Source: Candidatus Latescibacterota bacterium
GTDB taxonomy: Bacteria; Latescibacterota; UBA2968; UBA8231
Assembly (NCBI GenBank): GCA_965261395.1
Contig: OZ253462.1
Location: forward strand, 4,704,001 to 4,768,000
DNA length: 64,000 nucleotides
Reading direction: 5' to 3'
Part shown: one piece after another, positions 2,594-14,328 of the stretch
Numbering within the stretch: position 1 is the first letter of the stretch
Layout of the letters: each line of letters begins with the position of its first letter
The notes under the pieces: model-generated
Told to the model about the DNA's origin: nothing
Seen by the model: only the letters and a program-made list of their open reading frames with translations
Databases searched by the model: none
Program-made: the position numbers and the translations under genes

Positions 2594-2630
2594 GTTCCAC
2601 CTCGTTTGAAATTGTCAATTCTGCCTTCTC

Positions 2631-2660
2631 AATCTACCCGACGCCTCTTCGTCTTGTCAA
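2631..2660 (-). promoter_or_regulatory. Putative sigma70 promoter for the 1967-2593 gene
   Basis: TTGACA-N18-TAGATT on the minus strand. Confidence 0.35.
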
Positions 2661-2725
2661 GCTGCCGTGGCCCGGCGCAGCCCATTGCTCCCCCCAACGC
2701 CAACCCCTATTTTCAAATCCTCATT

Positions 2726-3511
2726 ATGCAGGCTCAACTCCAACAAGCCATAGCAGCCACCCGCGAGGCCGGGGCGCTGACCTTGCAGTACTTCGGCGGG
2801 CCACTCAAGGTCGCCTACAAAGACAGAAATGACCCGCTGACTGCGGCGGATCTCCAAGCCGACGCCTATCTCAAAGAAGCTCTGCGGGATCTGCGCCCAG
2901 ACTGCGGCTGGCTCTCCGAAGAGACCATCGATGACCGCCAACGCCTTAAAAAAGATGCCGTGTGGATCGTCGATCCAATAGACGGCACCCGCGAGTTTGT
3001 CGCAGGCATTCCCGAATACGTGGTCGCCGTGGCCTTAGTCGAAGGCGACGAGCCAACCCTCGGGGTTATTTATAACCCCGCACAGGAGCAAGTCTTCGCC
3101 GCCGTGTCCGGCAGCGGCACCTTCCGCAACGGCCAGCGCGTCTTTTGCAGCGAGGTCCAATCCCTCAGCCAAGCCACGGCCGTCGTCAGCCGCAGTGAGA
3201 CCAAACGCAGCGAGATTGATCCCTTTCGCCCGCACCTCGGCGAAATCCGCCCCGTCGGCAGCGTCGCCTACAAGCTGGCCCTAGTCGCTGCAGGGGCCTG
3301 CGACCTCAACTTTAGCGTCCAAGGCAAAAACGAGTGGGATGTTTGCGCTGGCGACCTGTTGGTGCGCGAGGCCGGCGGCCTCATGCACACGTGCAGCCAT
3401 CAAGTGCGGCGTTATAACCAAGCCGATCCCCTTATCCCGGGTGGACTCGCCGCGGGCAACGCGTCGCTGGTGGCGCACATTCTCCACCTGATGCACGAGC
3501 AAAAGCAATGA
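2726..3511 (+). CDS. Inositol monophosphatase family / CysQ-like 3'(2'),5'-bisphosphate nucleotidase
   Basis: LSEE, WIVDPIDGTREF and EWDVCAG motifs. Start moved to ATG 2726. ATGA overlap with polX. Confidence 0.88.
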   Translation: MQAQLQQAIAATREAGALTLQYFGGPLKVAYKDRNDPLTAADLQADAYLKEALRDLRPDCGWLSEETIDDRQRLKKDAVWIVDPIDGTREFVAGIPEYVVAVALVEGDEPTLGVIYNPAQEQVFAAVSGSGTFRNGQRVFCSEVQSLSQATAVVSRSETKRSEIDPFRPHLGEIRPVGSVAYKLALVAAGACDLNFSVQGKNEWDVCAGDLLVREAGGLMHTCSHQVRRYNQADPLIPGGLAAGNASLVAHILHLMHEQKQ

Positions 3512-5202
3512 TAACGGCCCGCAACGCAGCAGATTTTGTCGAAGAGTACGCCACCCTCCTCGAACTCAGTGGGGCCTCCCCCTTCCGGGTCCGCGCCTAC
3601 GCCAACGCCGGGCGCGCCCTCGAAACCATAACGTCCCCTCTCGACGAACTCCTCGCCGCCGGGACCCTAACCGAGGTCAAAGGCATCGGCGACAGCGTGG
3701 CCGAGCTGGTCGCCGAGTTCGCCGACACCGGCACGGCCCAAGCCTATGAAAAGCTGCGGGCCGCAACGCCCGAGGGCCTGCTCGACATACTGCGGGTCCC
3801 CGGGTTGGGGCCGCGCAAGATCAACGCCATCCGCAAGGACCTCGGTATTGAGACCCTCGACGCCTTGGAGCAAGCCTGCCGCTCCGGCCAACTCGCCGCC
3901 CTCAAGGGGTTTGGTCCCAAGACCCAAGCAACCATCCTCAAGGGCGTCGAGTACATCCGCGCCCATGCGGGCCACTGCCACGCCGATGCCGCGCACCAAA
4001 GCGCTCACAGCCTGCTCGCAGCCCTGCGCTCCCACGCGCAGCGCCTCGCTGTCGCCGGAGAGTTGCGCCGAGCACGGGAGACGGTCCAACAGCTCGACTT
4101 CGTGCTCAGCACTACCGACGCCGATGCCGCGAGCGCGGCCTTTGCAGCTCACCCGGATATCGCCGCGGTCCTCGAGCCGAATGTAGGCCGGCTGTCCAAC
4201 GGACTGCAAGCCAACCTGCACATAGTCTCAGACGAAGCCTTCCCCGCGGCCCTACACTACTACACAGGCAGCGAGGAACACCGTTCCGCACTGTGCGCCA
4301 AGGCCGCCGAGCACGGGCTAGTCCTCGACGAACGCGGACTCTGGCGCGGCGACGAGCGCATCGAGTGCGCGAATGAAGCGGCTTTGTTCGCCACCTTGGG
4401 ACTCGCCTACATCCCGCCGGAACTGCGCGAGAACCAAGGCGAAGTTGAAGCCGCGGCCGCCGACGCGCTGCCCGAGTTGGTAACAGCCGCCGACATTCGC
4501 GGCATGCTCCACGTGCATTCGACCTATTCGGATGGAGCCGACAGCCTAGAGGCTATGGCCCGCGCCGTGCAAGAACGCGGCTTTGAGTACATGGGCATTG
4601 CCGACCACAGCCAGACCGCAGCCTACGCCGGGGGGCTTCGCGTTGCAGAGGTCCAGCGTCAGTGGGAGGAAATCGACCGGCTCAACGAGGAATTGGCCCC
4701 CTTCCGCATCTTCAAGGGCATCGAGTCGGATATCCTCGGCGACGGCTCGCTTGACTACGACGACGACCTGCTCGCCCAATTCGACTTCGTGGTCATCTCG
4801 GTCCATTCGCAGTTCAACCTGAGCCGCGACGCCATGACCGCCCGCATCGTCCGCGCCATCGAACATCCGGCTGCCACCATCGTCGGCCATCCAACCGGGC
4901 GCTTGCTCCTCAACCGCGAAGGCTACGCCGTCGATACCGAACAAATCATCGAAGCCGCCGCCCGCTGTGGGGTTGCCATTGAAATCAACGCCCATCCGTC
5001 GCGGCTCGACCTCGACTGGCGGCACGTCAAAAAGGCCCGTGACCGCGGCGTCCAAATCGCCGTCAACACCGACGCCCACAGCATCGCCGGCCTGGATCAT
5101 CTCGGCTACGGCATCGGCATCGCCCGCAAGGGCTGGCTCCGCGCCGCCGACATCCCCAACGCACTCGGCCGCGAAGCCATTGCCGCTTGGTTCCAAAGCT
5201 AA
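3508..5202 (+). CDS. polX: DNA polymerase X / PHP 3'-5' exonuclease (non-canonical polymerase site)
   Basis: N-terminal PFRVRAY, HhH motifs (VKGIG, VPGLGP, LKGFG) and YTGS. PHP metal motifs HVH, DHS, GIESD, GHP and NTDAH. Confidence 0.93.
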   Translation: MITARNAADFVEEYATLLELSGASPFRVRAYANAGRALETITSPLDELLAAGTLTEVKGIGDSVAELVAEFADTGTAQAYEKLRAATPEGLLDILRVPGLGPRKINAIRKDLGIETLDALEQACRSGQLAALKGFGPKTQATILKGVEYIRAHAGHCHADAAHQSAHSLLAALRSHAQRLAVAGELRRARETVQQLDFVLSTTDADAASAAFAAHPDIAAVLEPNVGRLSNGLQANLHIVSDEAFPAALHYYTGSEEHRSALCAKAAEHGLVLDERGLWRGDERIECANEAALFATLGLAYIPPELRENQGEVEAAAADALPELVTAADIRGMLHVHSTYSDGADSLEAMARAVQERGFEYMGIADHSQTAAYAGGLRVAEVQRQWEEIDRLNEELAPFRIFKGIESDILGDGSLDYDDDLLAQFDFVVISVHSQFNLSRDAMTARIVRAIEHPAATIVGHPTGRLLLNREGYAVDTEQIIEAAARCGVAIEINAHPSRLDLDWRHVKKARDRGVQIAVNTDAHSIAGLDHLGYGIGIARKGWLRAADIPNALGREAIAAWFQS

Positions 5203-5203
5203 A
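5191..5203 (+). repeat. Left copy of 13-bp direct repeat TTCCAAAGCTAAA (includes polX stop)
   Basis: Identical to 7378-7390. Confidence 0.9.
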
Positions 5204-5204
5204 C

Positions 5205-6368
5205 ATGACCCGTAGCGATTACCTCTCACAGCTTTTTCGGCGACTGCATACATTTCGTCAGGAAGCCCAACTTGAGCCTGAGCAGGTCGAAAGTAACCTT
5301 GTTTTGGGGCCAGGCTGGATCCATGCGTTCGAGAGCGGAGCGGCCCTCCCCGGTCTTGATGTGGTTATGTCTCTGCTCTCACTCTATGGCAAAACCCTGC
5401 GCGACCTTGCAGAAGGCATAGAAGGGAACGCTCCGTCCATAAAACGCTCAATTACCCCAGAAGAAGTCGACAATGATCTCATTCTTCACTTTACCTATGG
5501 TGAATACGACGCTACGTACCGCCTTGAAGGTGTTACCGTGGAGCAGTTCACAGAAATAGTTCTAACGTTGCGAAATGGGCTCGCTCAGCTTGCTAACTCT
5601 GGGATTGAAGACCAGCGAGTCGAGACGATTAAGATGGAAAGTGTGGCCAATGCATTCATGAAAGCCGTTGAACTCTGGCCCCAAGCTAACCCCTCCGATC
5701 TCTGGTGGTTTCTCGTATATCGCGCCTACTGTGACCCATACAACCATCCTGCCCAGTATGCTCGCTTAGACTTTGCGCAAAGCTGGAAACGAACTGCTGG
5801 TTGGGCCTTGGAGTTGGTTCTCGAAAAACATTACGGTGCTACCCTGGCGAAGCAAGGGATCAACATGGTACGTAAAGATTCCGAGCGTAAGGAGAGGATT
5901 CTTCACGGTATCAACGTTGGTCACCGCCTTGAAGCAGACAAAGTGGATATTATGCTAACGGTCGGCGAGGGCGCAAACGAACGGATGATTGGGGTCGTTC
6001 ACGTCAAGGCGAGTTTTGCGGAACGCCGGACAGACGATGTTCCTATGAGTCAAGCACTTGTTGATGCTAGCTACATTTCCCCACTATGGACGATGGACTG
6101 CAAGAGTTTCCCTGGTCCTGAGCCCATCAATCGCGGAGAATTGGGCAAAATCTTCACCGGAGAAGATCAGGATCAAAGGAACGCAAAGAGAAAAGACATA
6201 GAAAATGACGGCTTTTTCTCAGCGTGCTTTTCCTACAATAAGAACACTCATCCGACTCCTCCCGATACCCCCCTAGCAAAGGCACGGATTTATTCATGTG
6301 ACTTCATCGACCCAGACGATGCTTTCACTAGGTTCGTCGTTTCGGAGAGTCGCCGATTTCGGAAATAA
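5205..6368 (+). CDS. Putative type II restriction endonuclease (BsaWI-like) with N-terminal XRE-like HTH
   Basis: QSWKRTAGWALE and DKVD...HVKASFAER resemble PD-(D/E)XK CCGG-family endonucleases. The first ~75 aa resemble an XRE/C-protein HTH. Adjacent to a methyltransferase. Confidence 0.68.
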   Translation: MTRSDYLSQLFRRLHTFRQEAQLEPEQVESNLVLGPGWIHAFESGAALPGLDVVMSLLSLYGKTLRDLAEGIEGNAPSIKRSITPEEVDNDLILHFTYGEYDATYRLEGVTVEQFTEIVLTLRNGLAQLANSGIEDQRVETIKMESVANAFMKAVELWPQANPSDLWWFLVYRAYCDPYNHPAQYARLDFAQSWKRTAGWALELVLEKHYGATLAKQGINMVRKDSERKERILHGINVGHRLEADKVDIMLTVGEGANERMIGVVHVKASFAERRTDDVPMSQALVDASYISPLWTMDCKSFPGPEPINRGELGKIFTGEDQDQRNAKRKDIENDGFFSACFSYNKNTHPTPPDTPLAKARIYSCDFIDPDDAFTRFVVSESRRFRK

Positions 6369-7232
6369 TTCCAAATTTGGCCCTTCGCTTTCCTCCAAGC
6401 GTTTGTTGGAGGCCCGAACTTGCTCAGGGTCAACTTCAAATCCTATGTAGGAACAGCCAAGGGTCAACGCCGCGGTTCCTGTAGTGCCCGAGCCAGAGAA
6501 CGGGTCCAAGATCACGACGTCTTCTCCACAGGTTCCGTACGCCTTAATGCAGCGAATTGGCAATTCCTTTGGAAAGCGTGAGAAATGCTTGAGCCCGTCA
6601 ATTTTCTCGTTTGCGAACTCCCACACGCTCTTAATCGGAGGCGTTACGCGAAAATCATGCCGCTCGCTCTTTGTCAGCAAGTAAATCGATTCGTGTTGAC
6701 GATGCGGGCGTCGGCAACGGCCCTCTGGCATGGCATTTTTTTTTCGCCAGATCACTTCTCCCCGGAACAAGTAGCCCGCGTCGCAAAGAGAAATAATAAG
6801 ACGATATGGGAGCGCCAGAAGATTGCCATACTGAAGCCACGTTTCATCCTTGTCGATAAACGCTTTTCGTCGCGCCCGTGGTTTGGTGTATGCTGAATTG
6901 TCCTCCGAAAAACCTTGTTTTTTCTCACCTAGGGTGCTGAACTTCCACGCTTTTTGATTCCAGTTCACAGGGGTGTTGTAAGCGTCTCCCATATTAATCC
7001 AAAGAATCCCTTCCGGCCTCAACTTCGGTAAAATCTCTACAAAGGCTTTCGTGAGAAACCGTAGATAATCCCTCGGGTCTTTTTCGATACCGATCCCTTC
7101 TGAGTGCCTTTGCCCCCAATAGGGCGGACTTGTCACAACTATATTCACGGACTCGTCTGGAAGTTGCGGAATCAGTTCTAAACAATCGCCTTCGTGGGTC
7201 TTATTGATCGGGAAAGGCCCGATTTGGTTCAT
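6294..7232 (-). CDS. Site-specific DNA methyltransferase, beta class (probably N4-cytosine)
   Basis: Motif IV VTSPPY precedes motif I LDPFSGSGTTG, with the typical GDCLE N-terminus. Confidence 0.92.
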   Translation of the reverse strand: MNQIGPFPINKTHEGDCLELIPQLPDESVNIVVTSPPYWGQRHSEGIGIEKDPRDYLRFLTKAFVEILPKLRPEGILWINMGDAYNTPVNWNQKAWKFSTLGEKKQGFSEDNSAYTKPRARRKAFIDKDETWLQYGNLLALPYRLIISLCDAGYLFRGEVIWRKKNAMPEGRCRRPHRQHESIYLLTKSERHDFRVTPPIKSVWEFANEKIDGLKHFSRFPKELPIRCIKAYGTCGEDVVILDPFSGSGTTGTAALTLGCSYIGFEVDPEQVRASNKRLEESEGPNLELFPKSATLRNDEPSESIVWVDEVT

Positions 7233-7336
7233 TGGCTCTTCCTTTCTTCATAATTTTTTGAACACCAATGGGAGTGGGAATCGCGTCGGTGGAGGAATTA
7301 CACGCATCGGACCGTTCCCACAACCCTCTCTTTTTG

Positions 7337-7364
7337 AACTTATAGACGGTATCTTACGAGTCAA
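7337..7364 (-). promoter_or_regulatory. Putative promoter of the methyltransferase
   Basis: TTGACT-N16-TAAGTT on the minus strand, inside the islet. Confidence 0.3.
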
Positions 7365-7366
7365 GA

Positions 7367-7987
7367 ATGCAGCCCCATTCCAAAGCTAAAGGGCCGCCCC
7401 GCCTCATCGGCTTAGCCGGGCCATCCGGTGCCGGCAAGACCACGCTCGCCCACGCCCTCCAGACTCGCCTACCCGGCTCCGCGACCGTCCTCTCCCTAGA
7501 CGCGTACTACCGCGACTTAGCCGATCTCTCCCCAGTTGAAAGGGCCCGAGTAAACTTCGACGCACCCGAGGCCATGGACCACCAGCGCCTCGCCGCTGAC
7601 CTCCGCCAGCTCGCCGCCGGCCACCGCGTCGAAATTCCCGTGTACGACTTTGCCACCCACACGCGCCAAGCGACCCAACGCCACCTCACCCCCACCGACT
7701 TCCTGCTCGTCGAGGGCCTCTTTGCCCTCTACTGGCCCGACATCAACGCCCTCTACCACCTGCGCCTCTTCGTCGCCGCCGCCGACGCGCTCTGCTTGGA
7801 GCGCCGCCTCGCCCGCGACCGCGTCGAGCGCGACCGTTCCCCCGCCTCAATCCGCGCCCAGTACCAAGAGCAGGTCCGCCCAATGTACCGCCGCCACATC
7901 CAGCCCACCGCCCGCTACGCAGACCTGATCCTCGACGGCAGCACGCCCACCGAAGAACAGGTCGCGGCTGTTCTAGACGCTTTGTAG
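7367..7987 (+). CDS. udk: Uridine kinase
   Basis: IGLAGPSGAGKTT P-loop, LDAYY, NFDAPEA, PVYDF, VEG and RRLARD motifs. Confidence 0.88.
   Translation: MQPHSKAKGPPRLIGLAGPSGAGKTTLAHALQTRLPGSATVLSLDAYYRDLADLSPVERARVNFDAPEAMDHQRLAADLRQLAAGHRVEIPVYDFATHTRQATQRHLTPTDFLLVEGLFALYWPDINALYHLRLFVAAADALCLERRLARDRVERDRSPASIRAQYQEQVRPMYRRHIQPTARYADLILDGSTPTEEQVAAVLDAL
7378..7390 (+). repeat. Right copy of 13-bp direct repeat TTCCAAAGCTAAA
   Basis: Identical to 5191-5203. Confidence 0.9.
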
Positions 7988-8055
7988 GGGAAAGCCTTGT
8001 GGTTGCCCTCATGTCTGGCAAATAATTGTAGGGGCGACCGGCCGGTCGCCCCTAC
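7984..8055. repeat. REP-like GTAG palindromes (one degenerate, one perfect 28-bp)
   Basis: GTAGGGGCGACCGGCCGGTCGCCCCTAC at 8028-8055 is a perfect palindrome. GTAGGGGAAAGCCTTGTGGTTGCCCT at 7984-8009 is a degenerate relative. Confidence 0.7.
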
Positions 8056-10709: not shown

Positions 10710-11315
10710 TTAAGACCGGCGCAGCGTGTCAATGAGCCGTCGCGCATGGCAAGAGGCTTCCACCACTTTACTCGGATCCAAGCATCCAAGAAGGTCAAAC
10801 GAATGCCGACCCTTCCGGTATGTTCCTTTACCTTTAGAGCACGACCTTGTCGCCTGTTTCAGCGCTGGTTCAAGGTCATCTTTTGCGATGGCCTCCACAT
10901 CGTCTCGCGCAGATAACGCGGCGGCGTTGAAATCCTTGCCAAAATAGTCACCCAAAGATTGCCGGTCTGCGACGAACCAGGCTTCCATGCACTGCACCAT
11001 GAGTTGTGCGCTGTCATCCACGGCGGCCGAGGGCTGGGTCCATTTATCGCGTTTCTTTAGGTGCTCCCAGGGGCTATCGCCGGCTGCGACTGCGGCCTCA
11101 CTATCTACCAAGAGAACGATAAAACTGTCGTCTTCGGCTTGACCAATAGCCGTACAAAATTGGTCGTATGCTCTTTGTCGGGAACCGCAAGCGATAACGC
11201 GCGGCATGCGGCCCTCAAGCCCGGCCTTGCTAAAAAACTCCCTGAAACCATTGCGACATTGTCTTCTTAATTGATTAGAGTCTCCACCACCCTCGACATA
11301 TACCTTGATGCTCAC
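10710..11315 (-). CDS. DUF4276-like TOPRIM-fold putative nuclease/effector
   Basis: VYVEGGGD, LLVDSE and MEAWF acidic motifs. GTGA overlap with the upstream ATPase. Confidence 0.75.
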   Translation of the reverse strand: MSIKVYVEGGGDSNQLRRQCRNGFREFFSKAGLEGRMPRVIACGSRQRAYDQFCTAIGQAEDDSFIVLLVDSEAAVAAGDSPWEHLKKRDKWTQPSAAVDDSAQLMVQCMEAWFVADRQSLGDYFGKDFNAAALSARDDVEAIAKDDLEPALKQATRSCSKGKGTYRKGRHSFDLLGCLDPSKVVEASCHARRLIDTLRRS

Positions 11316-12538
11316 CAAGGATTCCCCCCAATCTCGCCACTGCTCCAGAGGTCACCGAGCCGGTAGTTCTCCAACCAAGCGGCCATTTTCTTTTCGTCGA
11401 GACGGCGCATCACAGTCTGCCCGTCGCGCTTTTCACAAACCACGATACTCCACCATTCATTGGTCAGGGCATCGACGAGCATGTCCGAATGGGTCGTTAC
11501 AATTAACTGGCTGCGTTCGGACGCTTCAAGCAACAACTTGCTCACCGTCGGCAGTATGTCCGGATGCAGGCCCAGTTCGGGTTCCTCGATACAGATGAGG
11601 GGCGGCGGTTGCGGGTGGCAGAGCACGGCGAGCAAACAGAGGTACCGCAGCGTACCATCCGAAAGACGAGTAGCCGGTATGACCACGTCGCCTTCCTCTA
11701 AGAACAGTTGGACCGTACTACCCTCAATCTTGACGTGGAAATCGGTTATGCCTTCGTAGAATTTGCTTAAAGCGTCCAGCAGACGCCGCTTTACCGCTGG
11801 CTCGCCTTGGAACCTGTTCAACACCAAGGCTAAGTTTTTCCCGTCTTCTTGCAGGAAATCGTTGGGAAGGTCGGCCTTCTGCGGCAAACGCAGTGGGGAA
11901 TCGCGCCCAAGCGACCACTCGCGATAAATGCGAATGCGGCTCAATACCTCGCCGAGGTACGTCAGTTCGGGGTATTGGTCGGGATCTTTGCGTTGGGACA
12001 GAATGGACTGGTCCGGTTTAATCTCCTCGGGACGAAAGTCGTACCCCAGCCGAGGACGAACATGAGGGAACTTCGCCTTTACGGTAGCCAGTATCTCCGG
12101 ACTCAAGTCATCCTCATCCTTAAAAGTGAGAAACGCCCGCCCGCCCTTCTGATTGTAATAGATATACGGCTCCTCATGTCCTTCATCACTCTGTTCGTTC
12201 TCTATCCGCTCTTCGATCAGTTCAAATCGCTGGCCGCGCTCGGCAAAACCCAGCCGGTATCGCAACGCCTGCGGCCCTTGTGGGTTCTCCACAATGGCCT
12301 CGATATGGGCAGTACCCTCCGGTTTTCCCCGCCAGATCCAATCGTGGATACCCCCGCCCTCACGAATAGGTGCGGCCAAATCTCGCGGAGCCGACCGGAG
12401 GATATCGATGCTCTCTAGAAGATTGGACTTCCCCGAACCATTGGGGCCGATCAATACATTTAGCCGCTTGAGTTCGAGTCCTCTGGAGTCGGGGCCGAAT
12501 GAGAGCAGGTTGGTCTGTTTGATACGACGAATGAGCAT
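11312..12538 (-). CDS. ABC-type ATPase (AAA_15/AAA_21-like, non-transporter)
   Basis: Walker A GPNGSGKS, signature LSDGT, Walker B/D-loop IEEPELGLHP and H-loop TTHS. Confidence 0.9.
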   Translation of the reverse strand: MLIRRIKQTNLLSFGPDSRGLELKRLNVLIGPNGSGKSNLLESIDILRSAPRDLAAPIREGGGIHDWIWRGKPEGTAHIEAIVENPQGPQALRYRLGFAERGQRFELIEERIENEQSDEGHEEPYIYYNQKGGRAFLTFKDEDDLSPEILATVKAKFPHVRPRLGYDFRPEEIKPDQSILSQRKDPDQYPELTYLGEVLSRIRIYREWSLGRDSPLRLPQKADLPNDFLQEDGKNLALVLNRFQGEPAVKRRLLDALSKFYEGITDFHVKIEGSTVQLFLEEGDVVIPATRLSDGTLRYLCLLAVLCHPQPPPLICIEEPELGLHPDILPTVSKLLLEASERSQLIVTTHSDMLVDALTNEWWSIVVCEKRDGQTVMRRLDEKKMAAWLENYRLGDLWSSGEIGGNPW

Positions 12539-12563
12539 ATCCTACCTTCACAATCTCCAGTAG

Positions 12564-13214
12564 TTAAGAGCTTTGGCTACTGGGAAAGAACAACCGCTTC
12601 AGCCAATCAGCGAGAACATCTACTTCTGTAACACTGGGATCAAGGAAGCAGGCACTAATGGCCGTCCCGAAAGGCCGTCCCGGCTCTTCCTGCCAAGCAA
12701 GCCAAGTATGGATGACCGCCTTTGGCTCAGCTAGTTGCTTGAAACGCCGCTCGCCTTCAGGGATAGCTGCCACACTGGCCTTAGCATGGTCAAAAAGAAT
12801 ATTAGGTTGCGGAACAAGGAAGTGCAGGAAATCCTCCAAGATTCCACTTGTCTGGTTATTCGGCATAATCCAGACGCCCAATCGCGGTAGATAACTTCCT
12901 GCCGGAGGATCGAGGATCGTTCCGTCCGGGTCTGGTTGATCAGGCACATTTTGGTATCCGAAATCGGTGATTCGATCTCGTATCGACTGCCAACGGGCGC
13001 TTATGTCCGTATCGGCATCAATGACTACCCCAATAGCGTCGCCCTCCTGGATCAATAATGGGAGTCGGACCCCAAGGTTCTCAATGAGTTTTATGTCATT
13101 GCCACAGTTCTCCACTTCGTCGAGATGGGGAATACCGTGATTCCCACAGATATGCTTCAGGACGTGCTCGTCGTCGGTGCCCTCCACCAAGAGGATTTTC
13201 CTCCCATTTGCCAT
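12564..13214 (-). CDS. DUF3226-like TOPRIM-fold putative nuclease/effector
   Basis: LLVEGTDD, VVIDADTD (DxD) and WIMPNN...GILEDF. Starts 1 nt after the upstream ATPase stop. Confidence 0.75.
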   Translation of the reverse strand: MANGRKILLVEGTDDEHVLKHICGNHGIPHLDEVENCGNDIKLIENLGVRLPLLIQEGDAIGVVIDADTDISARWQSIRDRITDFGYQNVPDQPDPDGTILDPPAGSYLPRLGVWIMPNNQTSGILEDFLHFLVPQPNILFDHAKASVAAIPEGERRFKQLAEPKAVIHTWLAWQEEPGRPFGTAISACFLDPSVTEVDVLADWLKRLFFPSSQSS

Positions 13215-13215
13215 A

Positions 13216-14328
13216 TCAGCGCACCTCGATTTGGTCGCGGGTTGCTATGGCAAGTTCATCTTCTGATAGCACAGTGGGAATAATGTCCTCACCCCTGCGA
13301 GCCAAGCGTATAAGCACCCCCTCTTCAGGCGCTTCCGCCGCCGCTTTCTGAAACGCCTCGACCGCGTCCCAACTATGGGACGTCGCAAAGACTTGAATAT
13401 CGAGCTTTTGCGCCAACCGGAATATCGTGCGCCACACATCCAACTGCACGGTGTGATGCAGACCGTTTTCAAACTCATCCACCAGCAAAAGTCCCCCGCG
13501 AGCATTGACAAGCGAGAGAATGATTCCAAACAGCCGATTCAGTCCGTCGCCAAACGAGCGCAGTGGAATAGGCCGTGCGATATTGTCTGCTCGTACAATG
13601 GCGGTAAGCTTTCTGCGAGTGCTGCCAACCATGGAAACGGCAGAGATCTGAGGACTGATTATGTGCAACGCTTCAACGACATCCTTTTCCCTATCAGATA
13701 GCGCGATTTTATCCCACAATGGCCCCAACGCTCCTGTGCTTTCTCCGCTGTAGGGACTGACGAAGATACAGGACATCCGGGTTCCATTGGATGCTTCAAA
13801 ACGCGCTCTGTGCATCGGATGAAGGTATCTGCCAAAACGATCAAGCCGATGGGCTTTTTTTGTGTCTTGTGTCTCGACGATCAAAGCAGCTATACCGTCT
13901 GGTTCTAGTTTGCCAAGAGGGACCAACCGATATTGTCCGTCCGAGTCGGATTCCTCTGATAGCCAATCCAAGCATATTGTCATGCTTATTGGGCTCAACT
14001 TGCCACTAGTTGAAATAGCGATCGGCTTAGGGCTCTCTGAAAGCAGAGGGAATCCGTGGAACAGCCCAGAGACCTGAAGCAAGCTATCGGGGTCAGCGGG
14101 GTGTTCTTCTTCCTCTGCTCCCTCAATATTTTCTTCACGGTGTCTGACTATGTCGTAAATCACGTCAGGCGCGGCATTGTTTGCGAGAATACGCAGCCCT
14201 TCAAGAACAGATGATTTTCCGGCGCTGTTCTTTCCTGTAATCAGGTTCACGCGCCCCAAGCCACAGATGGTCAACTCGCGGAATACGCGGAATCGCTCCA
14301 GCGTTATGCTCTCAATTTTGAGGCTCAT
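13216..14328 (-). CDS. ABC-type ATPase (AAA_15/AAA_21-like, non-transporter)
   Basis: Walker A GKNSAGKS, signature SFGDG, Walker B LVDEFENGLH and H-loop ATSHS. Confidence 0.9.
   Translation of the reverse strand: MSLKIESITLERFRVFRELTICGLGRVNLITGKNSAGKSSVLEGLRILANNAAPDVIYDIVRHREENIEGAEEEEHPADPDSLLQVSGLFHGFPLLSESPKPIAISTSGKLSPISMTICLDWLSEESDSDGQYRLVPLGKLEPDGIAALIVETQDTKKAHRLDRFGRYLHPMHRARFEASNGTRMSCIFVSPYSGESTGALGPLWDKIALSDREKDVVEALHIISPQISAVSMVGSTRRKLTAIVRADNIARPIPLRSFGDGLNRLFGIILSLVNARGGLLLVDEFENGLHHTVQLDVWRTIFRLAQKLDIQVFATSHSWDAVEAFQKAAAEAPEEGVLIRLARRGEDIIPTVLSEDELAIATRDQIEVR

Follow-up and report, generated by a model that had tools for sequence, protein, structure and literature searches.

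Several described systems come close to the restriction-modification (R-M) cassette treated here, which lies between polX and the uridine kinase gene udk in a 64,000-nt stretch of DNA (the window, in whose coordinates all positions are given) from the 6.55-Mb genome of a Candidatus Latescibacterota bacterium (G000). Minimal mobile elements are variable segments exchanged by homologous recombination in conserved flanks (PMC3787668). R-M units have been described with long target duplications or as transposon-like units (PMC2853133), and R-M genes of a symbiont are described without flanking repeats (PMC4760077). On the side of regulation, the double C-box type of operator for controller (C) proteins is described in PMC2175313, Esp1396I-type regulation in PMC3488213 and controller-endonuclease (C-REase) fusions of the PvuII family in PMC3850674, while the four active-site and seven recognition residues of the AgeI endonuclease are named in PMC5389614. 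In the open literature, with subscription journals and REBASE outside the scope, no paper was found on the polX-udk locus, on a helix-turn-helix (HTH)-AgeI family or on R-M insertions that resolve a gene overlap.

The locus is probably an intact two-gene Type II R-M cassette that was inserted once, long ago, at the polX-udk junction and was then passed on, lost and exchanged by host homologous recombination rather than by machinery of its own.

Alleles of the polX-udk junction

The junction was surveyed in all 30 other genomes of the genus; G019 is unreadable because it ends at a contig break, and the 30 readable genomes fall into four allele classes. The site is empty in 18/30 relatives, polX being joined to udk through one copy of a 13-mer, letter for letter in ten. 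Sixteen of these empty alleles keep the same spacing and a recognisable udk; in G016 udk has decayed, and in G006 it is deleted after about 40 bases. Whole cassettes occur in four relatives (G022, G029, G012 and G025), remnants with differing internal deletions in five (G027, G018, G007, G030 and G003), and other cargo in two (G008, a leucine-rich-repeat protein; G026, a 657-aa membrane protein without a Pfam match). All cassette-bearing alleles have the same junctions. Five distant species, with 70-81% identity in the flanks, are all empty, therefore the empty state is ancestral and the cassette was inserted. An earlier reading of the DNA made from its letters (the sequence-only reading) had proposed insertion into a joined polX-udk junction with a duplicated target, so that relatives lacking the cassette would join the two genes through a single repeat copy, and the survey bears this out.

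The elements of the locus are as follows.

5191..5203, + strand: 13-bp duplication, left copy, the native polX end with its stop at 5200-5202
5205..6368, + strand: R, Type IIP restriction endonuclease, 387 aa, XRE-HTH plus AgeI-like CCGG-family nuclease (PF13560, PF18643; PADLOC REase_II E 6e-41; AgeI 5dwa E 5e-39)
6294..7232, - strand: M, beta-class amino-methyltransferase, 312 aa (PF01555 E 1e-35; PADLOC MTase_II; M.PvuII E 1e-15; SPPY before DPFSGSGT)
7378..7390, + strand: 13-bp duplication, right copy, within the udk reading frame
2606..3511, + strand: inositol-monophosphatase-family gene (IMPase; PF00459 E 2e-55), overlapping the polX start by 4 nt
3508..5202, + strand: polX-PHP, 564 aa, left host flank (PF14791, PF14716, PF02811)
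7367..7987, + strand: udk, uridine kinase gene, 206 aa, right host flank (PF00485 E 8e-36)

The insert is flanked by the 13-mer TTCCAAAGCTAAA at 5191-5203 and 7378-7390; no third copy was found in the window (at two or fewer mismatches), and no exact one in the 6.55-Mb genome. Between the two copies lie 2174 bases (repeat offset 2187 bp) with a GC content of 0.50, against 0.66 in polX and 0.69 in udk. When 200,000 pairs of 100-nt windows were taken from the genome at a spacing of 2187 bp, 720 pairs (0.36%) shared an exact 13-mer by chance. R and M are the only genes of the insert, and neither is an integrase or transposase, so that the lower-GC block, its terminal duplication and its want of a mobility gene had all been described correctly from the letters. 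The same reading rightly placed the last polX codons and stop in the left copy. Its likening of this arrangement to the restoration of a target gene's 3' end by an integrative element does not hold, since the left copy is the native polX end and the rebuilt part is the 5' end of udk: the right 13-mer covers part of udk codons 4-8, and the udk ATG (7367) falls in the insert, a placement within udk that the sequence-only reading had overlooked. A phylum-wide search with the R protein as query found it in 6/168 genomes, always at the polX-udk junction, and copies at a second target site in none of the 168.

Across 31 genomes the junction has received three different kinds of insert, and two candidate defence pairs lie 2.7 kb further on; this could be taken to mean that the junction is a defence hotspot cycling through defence systems, as had been proposed. 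The expected empty sites and different cargo were indeed both met with in relatives, but the other cargo is not of a defence kind: R-M is the only defence system seen at the junction, the alternatives being the leucine-rich-repeat protein, the membrane protein without a Pfam match and two genes in a remnant, which makes a hotspot very improbable. The remnant is that of G030 (L034 2978-4909), where two related genes of about 310 aa with a shared terminal 13-residue motif are inserted; the one that was scanned has no Pfam match. In G026 (L022, about 3163-3185), whose core sister is G030, five of the seven bases that follow the left copy agree with the start of the cassette, and its cargo may have replaced the cassette. 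The pairs beyond udk form a small lower-GC defence cluster (10710-14328) of two adjacent ATPase-plus-partner pairs, matching the PADLOC candidates HEC-01A/B and PDC-M38A/B.

How the alleles came to be distributed was examined on a core tree of rpoB, gyrA and a class-I tRNA-synthetase gene from 30 genomes (G017 lacks these genes and was left out). The carriers are not a clade; at least seven changes are required, and monophyly is rejected (approximately unbiased test, p 3e-52). Flank trees disagree with the core tree as well. In G009 the first 200 bases of udk are 98% identical to G028 and 91.5% to its core sister G029, which argues that the flanks themselves recombine. Between G000 and G022, which have a core identity of 95%, the cassette shows 6 differences in 2174 bases, where polX shows 130 in 1683 (Fisher p 3e-40) and udk 15 in 597 (p 1e-6). 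The cassette of this pair is a recent cross-species transfer, and its near-identity points to homologous exchange. Scattered allele classes and one near-identical pair are what is expected for allele exchange through the flanking genes.

Fourfold-site distances between whole copies (pair G000/G022 left out) are 0.13-0.22 for R and M, 0.16-0.20 for polX and 0.17-0.34 for core genes. Because the cassette values lie near those of polX and somewhat below core, the insertion is, by this measure, old, and appears to have been in the radiation for most of its history. Several observations tell against so simple a history. Cassette distances below core would also fit a later entry, with the radiation already under way; support for the cassette tree is poor, and gain and loss cannot be polarised on it branch by branch; and the G000/G022 tract ends near the cassette ends (nearest flanking differences at 5145 and 7414), which would fit circle integration as well. 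A late entry into one lineage, followed by at least five separate gains through homologous recombination, with most empty alleles never having held the cassette, would accord with distances that are mostly below those of core genes, and also with G012, whose polX flank is like that of its empty sister G001 (96-98%) and whose udk flank is not (87-91%), as if cassette and udk had been imported. Such a course is rather unlikely, for each of the three main subclades contains whole copies and two of them contain remnants as well, every remnant shows deletions of its own, and several empty alleles look imported themselves (G009; G004, G011 and G021, which share a junction variant).

Loss can be followed in one case. 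G006 is empty, yet its single copy shows the same derived variant as the left copy in its carrier sister G018, which makes a past precise loss through the repeats likely; the variant copies a 6-mer just upstream and may have arisen twice. The udk deletion of G006 terminates in a 28-nt palindrome, which in the window is perfect (8028-8055, after udk), resembles a repetitive extragenic palindrome (REP) and has very high summed depth in all four sequencing runs that were compared.

Length of the duplication and mobility

Three short segments bear on the size of the duplication and on the ends of the insert.

5179..5190, + strand: polX Ile558 codon ATT and the following G, with TTG at 5180-5182 as the likely ancestral udk start, a 23-nt overlap with polX
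7367..7377, + strand: cassette-side ATG and udk codons 2-4, in exact register (offset 2187) with the TTG at 5180
5204..5215, + strand: left end of the insert, 9/12 complementary to 7354-7365, a weak hint of terminal inverted repeats

In this genome the TTG at 5180 opens just an 11-codon frame. It stands in the udk frame, 22 codons ahead of the GKT motif, in 16/16 empty alleles with a readable udk. The Ile558 ATT is kept in 30/30 genomes as the sole invariant-ATT column among 25 Ile columns; elsewhere in polX, ATT serves for 197 of 899 Ile codons. With a 23-nt overlap between polX and udk, an insertion could have spared the two genes only by duplicating the overlap or by bringing a start codon with it, and the short target duplication would thus be explicable by survival, only events of these two kinds leaving both genes whole. 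The cassette-side ATG is kept in eight of the nine carriers that retain udk, including G018, where a deletion ends at the ATG; G025 has lost it and has an in-frame ATG seven codons upstream instead, so that a udk start is kept or replaced in 9/9. The cassette likely gave udk its new start codon.

Since this ATG stands in register, the duplication may at first have measured about 25 bp. The 13-mer would then likely be what still matches of a longer repeat that spanned the overlap and was eroded from both outer sides, the TTG of the right copy having changed to ATG. The left copy is altered in its 3' half in five carriers, and similarity ends at the base preceding the start codon. Weighing against the longer duplication, the 12 bases before the 13-mer match in 6/12 only (P 0.055), ATT predominates in three other polX Ile columns too, so that the invariant ATT supports an ancestral start without proving it, and udk is lost or broken in 4/31 genomes (G003, G006, G004 and G016), a sign that selection on it is not absolute. 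The low residual similarity would suit a duplication that was always 13 bp, arising from microhomology-mediated illegitimate insertion, with the ATG at 7367 as in-frame donor DNA kept by selection. M-promoter-like sequence reaches about 7364, bringing donor DNA nearly to the ATG, and in G008, whose cargo is unrelated, an ATG occupies the same codon position although the surrounding sequence is dissimilar. This reading deserves real, if minority, weight; set against it are the exact register of the ATG with the ancestral TTG, and the end of similarity at the base before the start codon, where the inverted-end boundary also lies.

That boundary invites the question of whether the unit moves by itself. 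A non-autonomous mobile element might excise as a circle and reintegrate at the junction, with an integrase or transposase acting in trans; it could take two forms, one with the 13-mer as an att-like site, the other with 12-bp imperfect terminal inverted repeats and a 25-bp target duplication. Ungapped, the ends match at 9/12 (P about 0.01 over 19 boundaries), the best match falling at 7365, where the start-codon register also places the boundary; by gapped alignment P is 0.15-0.20 and not significant. The ends of the G000/G022 tract and the variant in G006 would fit such an element too, and three tyrosine recombinases score above cut-off in the genome, none of them within the window. An element of this kind is nevertheless improbable. 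No second site was found among the 168 genomes, the left copy has drifted from the right by 3-5 bases in 5/10 carriers, the inverted ends lack covariation in four other whole copies, and no other pair with such ends was found in the genome. Moreover, the end letters that match are those of the start codon of R and of a likely -35 element, and no tRNA target was found at the junction.

Sequencing reads were compared, as contigs, for 4 of 24 listed runs. In run X1, possibly the source sample, a single contig covers 5000-7399 with no differences, its depth of 78 resembling that of the flanks, and in run X11 the cassette contig has depth 16.7 against 24-80 for flanking contigs, which may reflect an empty allele of the same species. 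Run X5 contains both an empty joint (5190-7378) at depth 10.1 and the cassette at depth 11.3, together with a second haplotype, 6-13% different, at depth 8-11, and the empty joint is best read as another strain or species. A circle joint was absent from the 10 listed joints in the four runs, a weak negative, as rare forms drop out of contigs. The sequence-only reading had held that the 2187-bp unit could excise by recombination between its repeats; ongoing excision went unseen in all four runs, and what survives of the idea is the apparent precise loss in G006. Runs X1 and X5 further contain a contig joining 5989-6049 to 6598-6629, with R and M pieces amid unrelated DNA (depth 122 in X1; not in G000), which might be the decayed remains of a copy located elsewhere, in a different organism. 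Six RNA runs share 9-17% of words, which is no evidence of expression or habitat.

Endonuclease, methyltransferase and the absent controller

The AgeI active-site residues E97, D142, K168 and D178 correspond to E203, D248, K268 and D278 of R and are kept in 5/5 whole copies and in 120/120 homologs listed. The recognition residues Q86, R90, E173, R174, K200, E214 and K224 are likewise all kept in R and in 5/5 whole copies; taken together, 11/11 residues plus D177 are present in R, and 119-120 of the 120 homologs listed have them. Because these residues are kept, ACCGGT is the predicted target of R. The AgeI dimer-contact pair S138/D223 is Ala/Ala in R (residues 244 and 327), and the fused HTH may take over dimerisation; among the 120 homologs listed, Ala stands at these positions in 104 and 118. 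Genome-wide, ACCGGT has an observed/expected ratio of 0.64, rank 26 of 64 palindromes; site avoidance was considered as proof of specificity and set aside, this value not being diagnostic. Stronger avoidance in G000 is seen for CAGCTG (0.10), GTCGAC (0.17), GGCGCC (0.17), CTCGAG (0.26) and CCWGG (0.47), and with 21 N6/N4-methylase matches the genome is rich in R-M history.

M is convergent with R, their 3' ends overlapping by 75 nt, and from its motifs is likely an N4-cytosine methyltransferase. It is intact, with SPPY and FxGxG motifs and a stop-free frame in 5/5 whole copies. Whole copies of R and M differ by 3-12% in amino acids without stops (pair G000/G022 left out), and for this reason both genes are under purifying selection.

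Homologous loci were collected to place this arrangement (n=89: 6 genome, 80 metagenome, 2 viral and 1 plasmid; the metagenome loci are 80 of 134 kept by an alignment-based scan, a first metagenome scan having given none). The same convergent M is present in 87. A separate C gene stands directly before R in 61 loci and is fused to it in 4, so that 65/89 carry a controller; 18 have none, and 6 are too short. In these homologs a double C-box precedes C, a single box lies upstream of M in 37/71 loci, and C ends where the polX end adjoins R here. The cassette of G000 has no C gene and no double C-box upstream of R, the best score on a matrix built from 46 family boxes being -6.8 against 14-57 for real boxes. 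No close C ortholog was found elsewhere in the genome, the best match having 30-35% identity. With C gene and C-box absent and the R start codon 2 nt past the polX stop, R is therefore likely expressed from the operon that IMPase and polX likely form; it would be read by translational coupling, and M would likely keep its own promoter region, in which one segment stands out.

7330..7366, strand not assigned: conserved segment with a degenerate single C-box at 7337-7347, resembling the box upstream of M in homologs

Across seven carriers this segment diverges by 3% against 18% in 7233-7329, a sixfold difference in conservation. It is likely the M operator/promoter, and possibly now serves udk. 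Two observations sit less well with this account of expression: C-less copies are not rare (18/89), and a promoter scan found none upstream of R, M or udk, its 2 matches standing against 1.9 expected. In 14/71 homologous loci an ACCGGT site stands no more than 135 nt upstream of M, with about 1 expected, many of the loci being kin; this supports the predicted target, and the sites, beside the single C-box (L174, L182-L186, L191, L192, L195, L202, L204, L205, L217 and L229), suggest methylation feedback added to C repression.

Two other explanations of the regulatory layout were tried and rejected. A permuted C-R-M circle was considered on account of a C-box-like 26-mer at 7337-7362 that points into the udk ATG and agrees at 13/18 positions with the consensus of PMC2175313; it is ruled out by the score of the 26-mer, -6.8 where real boxes reach 14-57, and by the same orientation of the single M box in homologs (37/71). 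The HTH of R as the controller is ruled out by the separate C genes of 61/89 homologous loci. True AgeI-type C-REase fusions occur in L046, L047, L048 and L050 (about 3900-5080), where a DRSY-helix controller is fused to the nuclease and a C-box-like motif lies upstream. A Gordonia plasmid (L236 1501-4110) carries the same M and HTH-R in divergent order beside a toxin-antitoxin pair and IS3. Phage records gave no match, the other finds being this one plasmid match and two viral contigs. Direct repeats around five distant genome homologs were followed up and dropped, being of chance length or REP-like only.

The layout has also been put together into a one-step domestication: a trans-acting, transposase-like event with 12-bp inverted ends and a 25-bp duplication would have unpicked the polX/udk overlap, dropped C, put R under the operon of polX, a DNA-repair gene, and udk behind the M promoter region, and the unit would still cycle out and in and cross species, the promoter-less R remaining silent until integrated. 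This is a long shot, as doubtful as the mobile element on which it builds; if true, it would be a C-free solution to the establishment problem.

Life history and known systems

In the preferred account of a single old insertion, polX joined to udk through one copy is followed by one illegitimate insertion, likely at a double-strand break by analogy with the proposal in PMC2853133. It would have survived because both host genes stayed whole. Exchange would proceed by homologous recombination, as for the minimal mobile elements of PMC3787668, with decay once R is inactivated and, likely, occasional precise loss through the repeats. For a single R-M insertion in an uncultured phylum this is an unusually full record, from the empty ancestor through whole copies, five separate decays, replacement and likely precise loss to a recent cross-species transfer. 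The cassette further belongs with a large AgeI-like family of mostly unnamed members (1059 matches) that has Esp1396I-type regulation. An endonuclease without controller may be timed by a host operon; this point and the explanation of a short duplication by survival are testable and of use to specialists.

Among known R-M proteins, R shares with R.AgeI (PDB 5dwa; PMC5389614) the four active-site residues, the seven recognition residues and D177, and differs by about 100 extra N-terminal residues with the XRE-HTH and by the Ala/Ala dimer contact. Its partner here is a beta-class amino-methyltransferase, unlike M.AgeI, a C5 enzyme. The family resembles the Esp1396I type (PMC3488213) in that C and R converge with M, a double C-box stands ahead of C, and M has a single box; this copy differs in being without C and double box and in R abutting a host gene. 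With the C-REase fusions of the PvuII family (PMC3850674) it shares an HTH fused to an endonuclease, but the HTH of R is not a controller, true C-R fusions being those of the four homologous loci.

Among modes of insertion, a site-specific integrative element is unlike this case, where no recombinase lies inside or beside the unit and the target is not of tRNA type. The R-M insertions with long target duplication of PMC2853133 are similar in having R and M only, a size below 20 kb, lower GC, an empty site, no mobility gene and a unique duplicated target overlapping a gene end; the duplication of more than 30 bp by which they are defined is not reached here, with 13 bp perfect and about 25 bp at most inferred. 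The transposon-like R-M units of that source share short direct repeats and an inverted end match, which is weak here (9/12), theirs being 26-65 bp and near perfect. The likeness to the minimal mobile element as described in PMC3787668 takes in several features: variable content between conserved flanks, the same organisation in distant genomes and a different one in close ones, homologous recombination in the flanks and decaying R-M cargo. The present case differs in taking place between GTDB species of Ca. Latescibacterota, with flanks that likely overlapped and a cargo that supplies the downstream start. In conclusion, the cassette likely behaves as a minimal mobile element whose cargo is an AgeI-like R-M system, a known kind of process without a new mobility mechanism.

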